A DNA stretch of 13,592 bases from a virus (taxonomy: Duplodnaviria > Heunggongvirae > Uroviricota > Caudoviricetes): IMG/VR virus record IMGVR_UViG_2778261231_000014, positions 1-13,592 of that record; one strand, written 5' to 3'. Below are positions 2,687-6,456 of this stretch, piece after piece. The first letter of the stretch is position 1; every line of letters begins with the position of its first letter. Made by a program: the position numbers and the translations under genes. Under the pieces are notes generated by a model. The model had not been told where the DNA came from, made no database searches, and was given only the letters and a program-made list of their open reading frames with translations.

Positions 2687-3229
2687 TCATATAACCCCCA
2701 ACATTGACGTGACCATCGTCATCAGCGGCCCTACCTGCTCCGGCATGAGGCGGAACAGCGACGCTATACCCTCGCTTACCTCTTTCAGCTTCTGATGCTC
2801 TGGAGCGCCCAGAAGCACTGCCTGCTTAGCTTCGGCACACTCTTTCATCGCGGATGCGATCAGCGACATCGTGTCGTTCTGTGGTGCAAGGCGGTTGCGA
2901 AATTCCAGTGGAAGTACCGCCATGATTGCGGGCGTCAGCTGGCGCACGTTCTCGCGGTACTGCTCAGAGTCGAAACGGTTATCCAGAAAGCGAAAAAGTT
3001 TCTGGCGCGCCCTGCTGATGTCTTCCGGGAAGCTGATGGCGGTACCGCCCTGCTCCCGGTATTCGTTGATGATCAGTGCCGAAACGACGTCCTGATTGTC
3101 CAGCGCCGAAGACCATGCCCGGACCGCATCGCGGATCTTTTCGTGGTCTGGCGCCGCCTTAGGTTGAGCGCGGTTTATCATCGCTCCCGGGTGTATTCCG
3201 GTATTGTGTTGATACGCAAGTGAATGCAT
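2687..3229 (-). CDS. YdaT-like regulatory protein (CII-position analog of Rac-type prophages)
   Basis: Sits immediately downstream of the cro-like gene. Motifs EYREQGG and LTPAIMAVLPLEFRNRL resemble Rac YdaT as I recall it. Start could be ATG 3229 or internal ATG 3181. Confidence 0.6.
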   Translation of the reverse strand: MHSLAYQHNTGIHPGAMINRAQPKAAPDHEKIRDAVRAWSSALDNQDVVSALIINEYREQGGTAISFPEDISRARQKLFRFLDNRFDSEQYRENVRQLTPAIMAVLPLEFRNRLAPQNDTMSLIASAMKECAEAKQAVLLGAPEHQKLKEVSEGIASLFRLMPEQVGPLMTMVTSMLGVI

Positions 3230-3258: not shown

Positions 3259-3480
3259 TTAGGCGGCAAAGATACCTGGATATAGAACTTCGCGAGGAAG
3301 CCCCGTCACTTCTTCGTACTTACGCATTTTTGTTACTGGAAGGCTGCCACCTCGCTTTTTAAGCATATTGATGGCCTGTGGCGTTACGCCGACCTTTTCA
3401 GCAAGCACCTTTTGAGAGCCGCCCACTGCATTAATGGCTTTCTCAAGCGGGGTGCTTGCGTTGGATTCTTTGTTGATCAT
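3259..3480 (-). CDS. Cro/YdaS-like small HTH regulator (73 aa)
   Basis: HTH-like segment QKVLAEKVGVTPQAINMLKK; GGAG RBS 7 nt upstream of ATG 3480; divergent from the repressor gene across an operator region. Confidence 0.7.
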   Translation of the reverse strand: MINKESNASTPLEKAINAVGGSQKVLAEKVGVTPQAINMLKKRGGSLPVTKMRKYEEVTGLPREVLYPGIFAA

Positions 3481-3597
3481 GTTTTGCTCCGCTCATGTGT
3501 AATCAACACCATGTTAATTCATGATGTGGATTAAATCAACATTATGGTGATGGAAAAAATCCACATGTTGTTTACCATGCATGGAGCGGAGGGTTTT
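3481..3597. promoter_or_regulatory. Immunity operator/promoter region (OR-like) between the divergent cro-like and cI-like genes
   Basis: Four copies of AATC(A/C)ACA or its complement at 3501-3508, 3525-3532 (TGTGGATT), 3534-3541, 3558-3565. 3525-3541 forms an imperfect 17-bp palindrome TGTGGATTAAATCAACA. A leftward TTGATT-17-TAACAT promoter candidate lies on the - strand. Confidence 0.6.
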
Positions 3598-4308
3598 ATG
3601 AGTAGCATTTCTGAAAGAATTAAATTTTTACTGGCAAGGGAAGGCTTGAAGCAGCGGGATTTGGCTGAGGCTTTGTCGACTAGCCCACAGACCGTCAACA
3701 ACTGGATAAAAAGAGACGCGTTAAGTCGTGAGGCGGCGCAACAAATATCTGAAAAATTCGGTTATTCTCTTGACTGGTTATTAAATGGAGAGGGTTCTCC
3801 AAAGAAGGATCTGGAGAGCAACATCCCGCCAGAGTCTGAGTGGGGAGTTGTTGATGCATGGGATAAAGACACCCCGCTTCCTGTTGATGAGGTTGAAGTG
3901 CCATTTCTTAAGGATATTGAATTTGCGTGTGGTGATGGTCGAGTTCAGTGCGAAGACCACAATGGATTTAAGCTGAGATTCTCCAAGGCAACGCTCAGAA
4001 GAGTGGGTGCAAATAGTGATGGTTCTGGAGTGCTTTGCTTTCCCGCTTCTGGTGACAGCATGGAGCCCGTTATTCCTGACGGCGCAACGGTAGCAGTCGA
4101 TACAGGCAACAAGCGGATTATTGACGGCGAACTCTATGCTATTAACCAGGGCGATTTAAAGCGCATAAAGCAGCTTTATCGAAAGCCTGGTGGGAAGCTA
4201 TTAATACGAAGCATCAATCGCGATTATGACGATGAAGAGGCTGATGAGGCAGATGTCGAGATAATCGGTTTTGTGTTCTGGTACTCGGTATTGCGATATC
4301 GCCGATAA
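3598..4308 (+). CDS. CI-like phage repressor (N-terminal XRE-type HTH plus C-terminal S24/LexA-like peptidase)
   Basis: HTH RIKFLLAREGLKQRDLAEALSTSPQTVNNWIK; S24 signature GDSMEP and a downstream Lys (LKRIK). Start ATG 3598 with GGAGGG RBS; in-frame ATGs from 3544 exist but overlap the operators. Confidence 0.85.
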   Translation: MSSISERIKFLLAREGLKQRDLAEALSTSPQTVNNWIKRDALSREAAQQISEKFGYSLDWLLNGEGSPKKDLESNIPPESEWGVVDAWDKDTPLPVDEVEVPFLKDIEFACGDGRVQCEDHNGFKLRFSKATLRRVGANSDGSGVLCFPASGDSMEPVIPDGATVAVDTGNKRIIDGELYAINQGDLKRIKQLYRKPGGKLLIRSINRDYDDEEADEADVEIIGFVFWYSVLRYRR

Positions 4309-4314
4309 TTTTAG

Positions 4315-4425
4315 TGGCCTGAAGAGACGTTTGGGTGATAAGAGAATATCTGATAGTAGGCGTGGTTACTTTGCTCTCGGTTGTTGCGATCGTGCTTATG
4401 GTGGCCTGATGAGACGTTTGGGTGA
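4315..4425. repeat. Two copies of a 25-bp direct repeat GTGGCCTGA(A/T)GAGACGTTTGGGTGAT, 86 bp apart, between the cI-like and KilA-N genes
   Basis: Copy 1 at 4315-4339, copy 2 at 4401-4425, one mismatch. Read directly from the sequence. Confidence 0.7.
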
Positions 4426-4457
4426 TTATTTTATTTTTCACAGCAATAGGATGATTT

Positions 4458-5219
4458 ATGACACAGTTTCAACTTGCATTAATCGCCAGAGAAGTTGATG
4501 GAGAAGTCATCCATCTTCGCACCAAAGACGGTTACATCAATGCCACCGCAATGTGCAAGTCTGCTGGGAAGCTACTTGCTGACTATACACGACTAAAAAC
4601 AACGCAAGATTTTTTTGATGAATTATCCCGCGATATGGGGATTCCCATATCGGAATTAATTCAATCATTTAAAGGCGGAAGAGCAGAGAATCAAGGGACT
4701 TGGGTTCATCCAGACATCGCAATTAACTTAGCTCAGTGGCTATCTCCAAAATTTGCAGTGCAAGTATCGAGATGGGTGCGTGAGTGGATGTCAGGCGAAA
4801 GAGCGCCTGCCGAACTCCCTATCCACCTTAAGCGGTATATGACAAACCGAGGCAGGGTTCCTCATACGCACTTTTCTATGCTTAATGAACTGACGTTTAA
4901 CCTGGTTGCGCCACTTGAGCAGGCAGGATATACGCTGCCAGAAAAAATGGTCCCTGATATTTCAGAAGGTAGGGTTTTCTCGCAATGGCTTCGTGAAAAC
5001 CGGGGTGTTGAGCCGAAGACGTTCCCAACATATAACCATGAGTACCCAGATGGCCGGACATTCCCGGTACGTCTATACCCAAACGAATATCTTGCAGATT
5101 TCAAACAACACTTCAACGAAGTGTGGCTGCCTCAGTACGCTCCTAAATATTTTGCAGAACGAGACCAAAGGGCATTGACGTTGATTGAGAAAATCATGTT
5201 GCCTGACCTTGATTCCTAA
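4458..5219 (+). CDS. KilA-N domain protein (253 aa) with an unassigned C-terminal domain
   Basis: N-terminal approximately 100 aa (INATAMCKSAGKLLADYTRLKTTQDFF...VHPDIAINLAQWLSPKFAVQVSRWV) fit the KilA-N/APSES-like fold. AGGA RBS; lower GC than the flanks. Confidence 0.65.
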   Translation: MTQFQLALIAREVDGEVIHLRTKDGYINATAMCKSAGKLLADYTRLKTTQDFFDELSRDMGIPISELIQSFKGGRAENQGTWVHPDIAINLAQWLSPKFAVQVSRWVREWMSGERAPAELPIHLKRYMTNRGRVPHTHFSMLNELTFNLVAPLEQAGYTLPEKMVPDISEGRVFSQWLRENRGVEPKTFPTYNHEYPDGRTFPVRLYPNEYLADFKQHFNEVWLPQYAPKYFAERDQRALTLIEKIMLPDLDS

Positions 5220-5227
5220 ATGTTATA

Positions 5228-5250
5228 CCCGGCCACCAAGCCGGGGTTTT
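5228..5250 (+). terminator. Putative intrinsic terminator after the KilA-N gene
   Basis: Stem CCCGGC / GCCGGG, loop CACCAA, followed by GTTTT. Sits between the convergent KilA-N and 65-aa genes. Confidence 0.4.
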
Positions 5251-5446
5251 ACTGCCCTTTCCGCACTATCTCAGCTGCATCCCTGTTCACACCCTTACCT
5301 ATCACGTTTCCCGTTTCCTTCCGGTACCGTTCCAGCTTGTCGATGATGTTTTGCTGGGTCATAGGTAAATCTGCCAGTGACAACTCCATGACCGCCCGCC
5401 CCATGGCGTGAACCATCATGTTCACTCTTTCTTCATCCAAGCCCAT
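5249..5446 (-). CDS. Small hypothetical protein (65 aa), divergent from the early-left promoter
   Basis: AAGGAG RBS 8 nt upstream of ATG 5446-5444; possible extended -10 TGATATGCT on the - strand upstream. No family recognised with confidence. Confidence 0.55.
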   Translation of the reverse strand: MGLDEERVNMMVHAMGRAVMELSLADLPMTQQNIIDKLERYRKETGNVIGKGVNRDAAEIVRKGQ

Positions 5447-5501
5447 TACCCACTCCTTTTTGATGTTTTTTTCAGCATATCACTTATGCCACCAAAAAAT
5501 A

Positions 5502-5576
5502 AATCAACATAAAAATCAACAAGAAACGATTAAATCAACAAAATAAATCCACAAGGTGTTGACCTATAAATCCACA
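5502..5576. promoter_or_regulatory. Second operator-like cluster (OL-like): five direct copies of AATC(A/C)ACA
   Basis: AATCAACA at 5502, 5514, 5533; AATCCACA at 5546, 5569. Same motif family as the cI/cro intergenic region; the last copy lies between the -35 and -10 of the rightward promoter. Confidence 0.55.
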
Positions 5577-5587
5577 TGATGTTTAAT
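5559..5587 (+). promoter_or_regulatory. Putative early-left (pL-like) sigma70 promoter: TTGACC-17-TTTAAT
   Basis: TTGACC at 5559-5564, TTTAAT at 5582-5587, 17-bp spacer containing AAATCCACATGATG. Points toward the recombination-gene operon. Confidence 0.45.
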
Positions 5588-5633
5588 TATCCCATCGAAA
5601 CGAAACATCGACAGCTGAGCGAAGTTAGCCAGC

Positions 5634-5664
5634 GGCGGACAGCAAGTCGCCTGCTTTTTAACAA
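5634..5664 (+). promoter_or_regulatory. nut-like site in the leader: bulged hairpin followed by a boxA-like TGCTTTTTAACAA (alternatively a leader intrinsic terminator)
   Basis: Hairpin GGCG(G)AC-AGCAA-GTCGCC at 5634-5651, then TGCTTTTTAACAA at 5652-5664, which is one mismatch from the rrn boxA core TGCTCTTTAACAA as I recall it. Confidence 0.35.
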
Positions 5665-6003
5665 CATGCAGATTTACAGCGTCAATGACCTGTTAAGACC
5701 CCTACACGTAAACGTGCTGTATCACCGGGTGCGATCCGGTCGGTGAGAGAGTATCCCCGCGCGAGAGCGAGAACGGCGTGAGAACGGGCAACACTGGCAG
5801 GGAGTTGGCGCTGACCAATACAGGGAATGTTATGGGATGTGGTGAAGGGTTCATGGACGGGAATATGTCGCACGTAAAGCGGCGAGGCCCGAGGAGCTAT
5901 TGCCGAAGATAAGTAGGCCGAATCGGGTCGAAATGGGTCTCCCACCTACCACATCGCCAAAGCATTTCTCCCGCATCAGCGGGTAACGACAGAGGGTAAG
6001 GGG

Positions 6004-6300
6004 ATGATCGACGACATCAAGCGCATCGACTCAATGATAAATGCGCTTCGCAATATGAAACAGGACATCAAGCGTCAGCAGAAACTAAGTGAAATAAACA
6101 GTTTAGACCTGTCGCCGAAGCAAGCTCAAAAGCGCAATGCCGATGCTGACTGGATTGCGATGGAACAGATTAAGCGTCGGCATGAGCTGCACGCTCTGTC
6201 TGTTGAGCTTGGGTTCGCTGAGCGCCGGGAAAGTTATGCTCCATTTGAATTAACTGACGGGTGGCACCGATTCGACCACAAGCCGCGCGAACCTCAATAG
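6004..6300 (+). CDS. Hypothetical early protein (98 aa), first gene of the rightward early operon
   Basis: RBS AGGGTAAGGGG before ATG 6004; followed immediately by an intrinsic terminator. No family recognised. Confidence 0.55.
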   Translation: MIDDIKRIDSMINALRNMKQDIKRQQKLSEINSLDLSPKQAQKRNADADWIAMEQIKRRHELHALSVELGFAERRESYAPFELTDGWHRFDHKPREPQ

Positions 6301-6321
6301 CCGCCTAACCAGCGGCTTTTT
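6299..6321 (+). terminator. Rho-independent terminator after the first early gene
   Basis: Stem AGCCGC / GCGGCT, 7-nt loop, then TTTTT; overlaps the TAG stop at 6298-6300. Confidence 0.6.
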
Positions 6322-6456
6322 CATACCTGGAGTCATTTACGAGTGGCTCAAGTTATGACAACCGGCGGCCATCCACCGCCCATTGAAACACTGAATAAAT
6401 GCGTTGAAGTCTTGTATTAACCGTTCCGTTCGCCGCGATAAGGCCAAGAGGAAATC

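Follow-up and report, generated by a model that had tools for sequence, protein, structure and literature searches.

A conserved 65-codon gene abutting the OL operators of a phi80-like prophage encodes a distant relative of the connector protein YmgB/AriR

What does the small open reading frame (ORF) that lies against the left operators (OL) and diverges from the early-left promoter (pL) of a phi80-like lambdoid prophage encode, and what might its product do? The window, by which we mean the whole 13,592-nucleotide (nt) stretch of IMG/VR record IMGVR_UViG_2778261231_000014 analysed here, is the early-left and immunity region of such a prophage, with the plus strand running in the pL direction. 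The ORF lies on the minus strand, comprises 65 codons from an ATG at 5446-5444 to a stop codon at 5251-5249, and converges across a 29-bp gap on a KilA-N gene (4458-5219, plus strand). An initial annotation had described it as a small gene with its own ribosome-binding site and promoter, and had suggested that its product is an anti-repressor or a host-modulating factor. Our analysis shows that the ORF is a real gene under strong purifying selection and that it represents a divergent, N-terminally shortened, phage-borne branch of the YmgB/AriR superfamily, and suggests that it is transcribed from a conserved extended -10 promoter.

The ORF is identified as a gene by its homologues, its substitution pattern, its synteny, and the joint decay of its promoter and C-terminus. 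The protein matches PHROG 3975, a family of unknown function (E 7e-35). Homologues form 508 clusters at 90% identity, and another allele group, 46% identical, adds 169. When 1.8 billion representatives are searched exhaustively with a profile, 116 clusters at 50% identity emerge, nearly all of them stand-alone proteins of 60-70 amino acids (aa). Pairwise ratios of nonsynonymous to synonymous substitution rates (dN/dS) are 0.02-0.22 across 12 homologous loci, with dS ranging from 0.05 to saturation. The ORF is thus conserved in related prophages, where the initial annotation had proposed a lack of conservation as its refutation test. An antisense ORF at 5220-5411 (plus strand) was rejected, as the substitution pattern fits the minus-strand frame.

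The gene also keeps its place. We compared 24 loci taken from contigs, one genome per species, with genera including Enterobacter, Kluyvera, Citrobacter, Siccibacter, Yokenella, Providencia, and Symbiopectobacterium. A cI-like repressor gene is convergent 30-2100 bp downstream in 22 of the 24, followed by cro and usually by cII; in three loci cI is directly adjacent to the small gene, with no insert. One of the remaining two loci is on a 1.75-kb contig too short to show neighbours, and the other, from Rahnella (L028), lacks both the conserved promoter and the downstream cI. Phages HK225 and HK639 carry the small gene in the same slot; HK639 has putL RNA in place of N and keeps the small gene, indicating that the gene travels with pL/OL and not with N. 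One copy, in a Citrobacter meridianamericanus genome, has both a destroyed -10 element and a frameshifted C-terminus. This decaying copy (L030, 3900-4180) has lost the extended -10 and ends in …LRMRQRW; the same genome holds a second, intact copy (L021). The Ewingella locus (L027, 2256-5900) has only a weak upstream cI-like match, with the small gene outside an immunity region, without the conserved promoter, and just 3′ of a 509-aa serine recombinase gene near cupin/XRE regulator and AzlCD-like chromosomal genes; the setting resembles the border of another integrated element.

The predicted structure of the protein reveals the three-helix fold of YmgB/AriR (PDB 2OXL). Specifically, AlphaFold predicts helices at residues 5-24, 31-44, and 48-62 with a mean predicted local distance difference test (pLDDT) score of 93.4, and a Foldseek search of the PDB returns one good match, to YmgB/AriR, an E. 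coli protein of stress and biofilm signalling (2oxl_A; template modelling (TM) scores 0.79/0.83; root-mean-square deviation 0.8 Å; 28% identity). Sequence profiles point to the same protein: an hmmsearch of 177,635 PDB sequences with a 38-member profile finds 2oxl_A as the sole significant match (E 2e-5; next match, 0.8), with an E of only 0.32 for YmgB when a narrower 18-member profile is used, and hhalign against 11 AriR orthologues gives a probability of 84.7% (E 6.7e-6) over 48 columns, 16 of which share the majority residue. The hhalign register aligns AriR residue R74 with R55 of the ORF protein, a position that is R in 18 of 18 members of the closer set. The family also has a highly conserved signature, GNVIxKGxxRDAAExVRKG. 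We conclude that the ORF product is very probably a genuine YmgB-type protein.

Several observations weigh against extending this homology to a shared function. The relationship is distant, at 25-29% identity, and at such distances binding partners often change. The phage protein lacks the approximately 30-residue N-terminal part of AriR, and R55 is shared by 26 of the 38 members of the broad set, not by all. A Pfam scan of the ORF gives no matches at E<=0.1, so that the PF10798 gathering threshold is missed; among 38 diverse relatives only three match Pfam YmgB, the best at E 0.0072. A tblastn search with AriR against 50,697 phage records gives no matches at E<=1; therefore, only profiles and structure see the relationship. 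Of these two, the structural match is not fully independent, since AlphaFold has seen 2OXL; the profile searches are independent. Other resources add little: NCBIfam and PADLOC scans give no usable matches, PHROGs gives only an unnamed family, the viral structure library BFVD gives no matches below E 0.3, and a direct comparison of the phage protein with YcgZ/YmgA and AriR does not place it closer to the former.

The region upstream of the ORF is conserved in a pattern that defines a putative sigma-70 promoter. We aligned on the -10 element 23 distinct upstream regions, from phages of differing immunity and operators and from lineages with saturated synonymous sites. Conservation is high at T-15 (23/23), G-14 (22/23), T-12 (22/23), A-11 (21/23), T-10 (21/23), G-9 (22/23), C-8 (21/23), and T-7 (22/23), position -13 is free, and the spacer from -26 to -17 is unconstrained. 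The pattern matches an extended -10 promoter, with a predicted transcription start near 5467. The purine-rich Shine-Dalgarno sequence is kept at the same distance in homologous loci, 23-28 nt after the -10 hexamer, and the leader has a folding energy of 0 kcal/mol (unstructured). A search of Rfam finds no RNA families within 4300-6400, and the conserved leader therefore corresponds to none of the known RNAs. Both the AAGGAG ribosome-binding site and the minus-strand extended -10 element of the initial annotation are therefore present, the promoter being conserved, and the orientation is as it had described, away from the operators, divergent from pL, and toward the convergent KilA-N gene.

Conservation extends to both sides of the -10 element. 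Upstream, a T-rich block from -36 to -27 (TTTATTTTT) may constitute a weak -35-like or UP-like element, and a weak -35 element at best; it overlaps the end of the nearest half-site for the CI repressor and is kept across operator types. Downstream, A is present in 18-22 of the 23 sequences at -5, -3 to +2, and +4 and in 14 at -4, and C is present in 19 at +3 and +6, giving a start-region consensus of AAAAAACAnCA. The non-consensus G-9 and C-8 of TATGCT are conserved like consensus positions, as is the A-rich start region. This exceeds what sigma-70 needs and may reflect tuning of promoter strength, a response to guanosine tetraphosphate (ppGpp) and DksA, or another bound factor. HK225 shares the phi80 promoter DNA, yet carries the 46%-identical ORF allele. 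A consensus promoter scan of 4300-6100 finds no promoters and is uninformative there, missing pL as well as the ORF promoter because its rules need A at position 2 of the -10 hexamer and a reasonable -35 element.

A LexA box and a strong integration host factor (IHF) site were considered in the window promoter and rejected, an IHF-like core being present only in another immunity type. In particular, a perfect IHF core consensus (YAANNNNTTGATW) is located at -59 to -47 in seven loci of one immunity type (L011, L012, L013, L017, L019, L025, and L026), between the operators and the ORF promoter and followed by a conserved A/T block, where IHF might act on pL, on the ORF promoter, or on both.

The cassette is closed by a G+C-rich hairpin of 6-7 bp located between the convergent genes. 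Read on the plus strand, the hairpin is followed by GTTTTAC and is the terminator of the cI-BstA transcript; read on the minus strand, it comes after the ORF stop codon, with a U tract that is poor in the window. A CCCGGC...GCCGGG hairpin is located directly 3′ of the ORF stop codon in most loci, and in HK225 it is a clean two-way terminator. A T-run antisense to the leader was rejected as a terminator, as no hairpin precedes the run.

The operators adjoin this promoter and leave its core free. The half-site AATCMACA occurs in five copies at 5502-5576 and in two more at the right operator (OR), and the 9-mer AAATCMACA has 7 matches versus 0.33 expected. The initial annotation had placed the control region of the gene at these 8-mers; it abuts the repeats, and the nearest half-site (5502-5509) overlaps the -35 region only, with no copy over the -10 element or the predicted start. 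Across five immunity types, operator-like sequences shared between OR and OL are confined to the stretch upstream of about -33, leaving the -10 element and the start uncovered in every case. Given the absence of operators from the promoter core, the repressor would not be expected to occlude a promoter that is independent of a -35 element, and, for the same reason, expression of the ORF from the prophage in a lysogen is probable. The layout is unlike that of simple repression, and would fit no control, weak repression, or CI activation of the type known at the promoter for repressor maintenance (PRM). According to the phi80 record, OR2 is centred 42 bp 5′ of the PRM start, and OL3 is centred about 43.5 bp 5′ of the predicted ORF start, a similarity from which CI could even activate the ORF promoter. 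Activation is made less secure by OL3 itself, which as annotated lacks an inverted right half-site and has alternative sites at 5514-5532, so that the operator geometry at -43 may be uncertain by several bases, or wrong. The mode of CI regulation at the ORF promoter is thus a matter of candidates, of which PRM-like activation is a lead only.

The left edge of the phi80-type immunity region is taken up by a self-contained cassette of promoter, gene, and terminator. The identical 65-aa protein is found with two cI types and beside either BstA or a DUF6932 gene plus a hypothetical gene; the gene that comes first after pL is N, Nmad5, or another small one. The unit remains unchanged while the cI type, the operators, the cI-side insert, and the first pL gene vary, and this variety of surroundings identifies the cassette as autonomous. 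Specifically, the insert slot holds gene 40A in phi80 and the DUF6932 and hypothetical genes in phage G3/10; the gene is present without BstA in phi80, G3/10, HK225, HK639, and most genome loci; and in one locus (L023) the same BstA is paired with a 48%-identical allele of the small ORF. The gene thus has two features of a moron, being flanked by a promoter (its function deduced from sequence) and a terminator and assorting independently of the flanking modules. In two loci (L032 and L033, 2908-3702, minus strand), a gene for a 264-aa Nmad5-domain protein replaces N as the first gene after pL, beside an identical small protein.

Comparison with known systems places the gene between host connector genes and phage accessory genes. 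AriR/YmgB (PDB 2OXL, PF10798) is encoded in the four-gene ycgZ-ymgABC operon, under the control of BluR, RpoS, and MarA. In contrast, the phage gene is prophage-encoded, lies outside that operon, is monocistronic, and has its own extended -10 promoter beside OL; it lacks the host context of ycgZ-ymgA-ariR-ymgC near bluR and bluF. The phage protein differs from AriR/YmgB in being 25-29% identical, below the Pfam threshold, and without the N-terminal segment, and in having its own signature motif. The AriR paralogues YcgZ and YmgA are, like the phage protein, small and helical and belong to this superfamily; they bind AriR as well as each other (PMC6900184), and their divergence from AriR is about that of the phage protein: YcgZ just passes the Pfam YmgB cutoff (24.9 versus 22.3 bits, a margin of 2.6), and YmgA has no match. 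Unlike the phage gene, they are members of a chromosomal operon without phage context.

Among phage genes, the closest parallels are the morons located between cI and pL (lambda rexAB, HK022 nun, and BTP1 bstA), which are accessory genes expressed in lysogens from the same mosaic hotspot (PMC8585504) and which resemble the ORF in its flanking promoter and terminator and its independent assortment from neighbouring modules. They point the same way as cI and are mostly transcribed together with it, whereas the ORF is in the opposite orientation with a private promoter abutting OL; moreover, the ORF is the fixed element and the cI-side insert the variable one. The arrangement at lambda PRM/OR2 is likewise similar in having a divergent promoter with a weak -35 element and an operator whose centre falls in the low -40s, and differs in that the ORF promoter is of the extended -10 type, has no OR3 equivalent (no operator over its core), and lies beside an OL3 of uncertain identity.

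Taken together, our preferred explanation, which we hold tentatively and at somewhat less than even confidence, is that the ORF encodes a prophage-borne, YmgB/AriR-like connector protein acting on host signalling, and that its probable use to the prophage is in adjusting host physiology and not in running the phage switch. YmgB binds RcsC's histidine-kinase domain and forms complexes with YcgZ and YmgA (PMC6900184), and its activation of Rcs is independent of RcsF and does not need the periplasmic domain of RcsC (PMC11709261). YmgB also binds the TGS-helical region of SpoT, leading to ppGpp accumulation; residue R74, on the surface of helix 3, is needed for SpoT binding and not for Rcs activation, the R74G substitution abolishing the former (PMC10704370). 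In this reading, the ORF would be transcribed from its own sigma-70 extended -10 promoter, probably in the lysogen, and CI at an operator centred near -43 might aid its transcription as OR2 does that of PRM. By analogy with YmgB, the protein would then bind a host signalling protein, either the RcsC histidine-kinase domain, the SpoT TGS-helical region, or both. Binding to RcsC would turn on the Rcs regulon, with more colanic-acid capsule, less curli, and less motility; binding to SpoT would raise ppGpp. Alternatively, the protein might pair with host YcgZ, YmgA, or AriR. The altered envelope and growth state could protect the host-prophage pair, for instance by capsule-mediated resistance to other phages or by stress tolerance, or could bias the balance between lysis and lysogeny.

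The simplest such mechanism, a shift in Rcs and/or ppGpp signalling through host partners, is possible by analogy with YmgB, at a confidence that falls slightly short of even. Against it stand the timing, start site, and promoter of the ORF, which are deduced from sequence, and the host distribution of the gene, since its restriction to Enterobacterales fits an action on Rcs and equally reflects phage host range. A bolder version, in which repressor bound at OL3 activates an AriR/YmgB mimic so that lysogeny itself switches on Rcs and/or SpoT-ppGpp signalling, and in which phages were the source of ycgZ-ymgAB, is doubtful.

The main competing explanation is that the ORF product regulates the lysis-lysogeny switch of the phage itself, whether as an anti-repressor, by modulating CI, Cro, or CII, or through pL or N, and is made from a CI-controlled promoter, the YmgB fold serving only as a scaffold. 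It would account for the position of the ORF against OL inside the immunity region and divergent from pL in nearly every carrier phage, for the operator half-sites that extend into its -35 region, and for its staying with pL/OL whether the phage uses N or putL RNA. It sits poorly with the occurrence of the identical protein alongside different cI types and operators, which would be unexpected for a repressor-specific factor, with the two loci that carry the ORF outside any immunity region, and with the sole relative of known function, which acts on host signalling proteins. Signatures of DNA-binding and anti-repressor families are absent as well. For the anti-repressor role suggested in the initial annotation, Pfam, PHROGs, NCBIfam, and PADLOC contain no Ant, KilA, or helix-turn-helix (HTH) family match to the ORF, and its fold is unlike those of known anti-repressors; the host-modulating role suggested there gains support from the YmgB/AriR connector homology. 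We therefore regard a switch regulator as unlikely. Even less probable is an Hha-like, nucleoid-associated co-regulator that, by binding H-NS or DNA, would change how prophage or host genes are silenced. Its basis is the kinship in fold with YmgB, and Lee et al. (2007, J Mol Biol, entry 2OXL) reportedly called YmgB Hha-like and gene-regulatory.

The immediate neighbourhood raises the further alternative that the ORF product is an antidote or regulator of the BstA-like protein, on whose gene it converges with only the shared hairpin between them and which neighbours the identical protein in six of eight listed contexts. A dedicated partnership of this kind is ruled out because the insert slot beside the gene varies, as the slots of phi80 and G3/10, the three genomes with cI directly adjacent, and the 48%-identical allele paired with BstA in L023 illustrate; PADLOC has no model matching the ORF, and the aba DNA element already accounts for the self-immunity of BstA (PMC8585504). 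The reading as a BstA partner is thus highly improbable. Lower still is the probability, close to nil, that the ORF is a nonfunctional chance reading frame in the DNA separating the immunity insert from OL. Its lack of annotation in the phi80 reference JX871397 and its lack of a Pfam family might suggest as much; the dN/dS values at saturated dS already refute it, and the hundreds of equal-length homologues, the conserved Shine-Dalgarno sequence and promoter, the confident fold prediction, and the broken -10 together with the frameshifted C-terminus in L030 all argue against it. The connector-protein reading remains our preferred one.

The features of the locus and its surroundings are collected in Table 1. 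Identity to phi80 is 99% from 5248 onwards and begins exactly at 5248. A mosaic junction with the cI-side insert is located within the last ORF codons (5249-5260; C-termini in L001, L009, and L011-L014): the C-terminus reads ...RKGQ (65 aa) in the window, G3/10, and L007, and ...RKGSKAVK or similar (69 aa) in phi80 and others. The KilA-N gene appears from its domain matches to be a BstA-type abortive-infection defence gene (Pfam KilA-N, 8e-27; phrog_6287 BstA, 2e-82; PADLOC BstA, 1.6e-20); its 253-aa product is shorter than the BstA profiles (PHROG, 304 positions; PADLOC, 292 positions). The cI start is likely near 3598, giving the 236-aa CI of phi80 and RefSeq annotations, versus the longest ORF from 3544, and would leave the third OR operator (3557-3575) 5′ of the coding sequence.

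Table 1. Coordinates of the small gene, its control elements, and neighbouring features in the window.
Feature	Position	Strand	Basis or comment
65-aa coding sequence (MGLDEERVNMMVHAMGRAVMELSLADLPMTQQNIIDKLERYRKETGNVIGKGVNRDAAEIVRKGQ)	5249-5446	-	three-helix protein; PHROG 3975 member; distant YmgB/AriR homologue
Shine-Dalgarno sequence AAGGAG	5453-5458	-	6 bases 5′ of ATG; unstructured leader
A-rich discriminator and initial transcribed region (AAAAAAACAUCA)	5461-5472	-	conservation in 23 sequences
Extended -10 element TGaTATGCT	5474-5482 (TG 5482-5481; hexamer TATGCT 5479-5474)	-	conservation
T-rich block (TTTATTTTTT)	5494-5503 (about -36 to -27)	-	T in 16-22/23 at most positions
Half-site AATCMACA repeats (OL region)	5502, 5514, 5533, 5546, 5569 (span 5502-5576)	+	pattern count
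OL3	5501-5520		transferred from phi80 record JX871397, offset +1247
OL2	5545-5563		transferred from JX871397, offset +1247
OL1	5568-5586		transferred from JX871397, offset +1247
pL	-35 at 5558-5563; -10 at 5581-5586		transferred from JX871397, offset +1247
OL operators and pL, between small ORF and N	5501-5586		coordinates transferred from phi80 record
G+C-rich hairpin, 6-7 bp	5228-5245		between convergent genes; terminator scan and folds
CII/YdaT-like gene	2687-3229	-	
Cro-like gene	3259-3480	-	
cI (HTH and S24 peptidase domains)	3544-4308 (longest ORF)	+	
BstA-like gene (KilA-N and BstA_C)	4458-5219	+	variable slot downstream of cI; outside the module of the small ORF
N	6004-6300	+	followed by RecE/RecT-type recombination genes and integrase

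The gene is phi80's own, unannotated in the reference JX871397 (L001, 4002-4199). To two phi80 sequences of the 1980s (X13065 and M11919) only residues 1-49 align, which suggests that an old sequencing frameshift hid the ORF there. The NCBI pipeline labels the gene 'hypothetical protein' in DH10B (WP_000362427.1, 69 aa) and in G3/10, and every database name found is 'hypothetical'. Literature searches by protein accessions and locus tags returned no paper that mentions the gene, and we found no prior description of it. Because it belongs to phi80 itself, it is carried by the phi80dlacZ prophage in DH5alpha, DH10B, TOP10, XL10-Gold, JM83, EPI300, and NEB 5-alpha/10-beta (the DH10B copy is at NC_010473.1, 1358341-1358550). 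Natural E. coli strains seldom carry the gene, which is present in 78 of 5426 complete genomes, mostly laboratory strains with phi80dlacZ; it is common in prophages of Enterobacter, Citrobacter, Kluyvera, and Salmonella.

Small conserved prophage genes are ordinary in themselves; the AriR homology, the OL-linked promoter, and the unannotated presence in phi80 and cloning strains make this one a cheaply testable lead. If the protein does influence Rcs or ppGpp, standard cloning strains and cultures contaminated with phi80 would contain a hidden variable. The host ycgZ-ymgAB region was proposed earlier to be of phage origin (PMC3509220), and the family described here bears on that proposal as a concrete phage reservoir. 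The conserved promoter near OL3 is a candidate for a second promoter read by the repressor in the lambdoid switch region, and, if CI does activate it from OL3 and the gene product signals as AriR does, the result would be a direct wire from the phage genetic switch to the host envelope-stress and stringent responses. If the protein acts as AriR does, a single 65-codon gene would let a prophage reprogram host capsule, biofilm, motility, or ppGpp, and a connector family known to date from the host chromosome alone would gain a phage branch.
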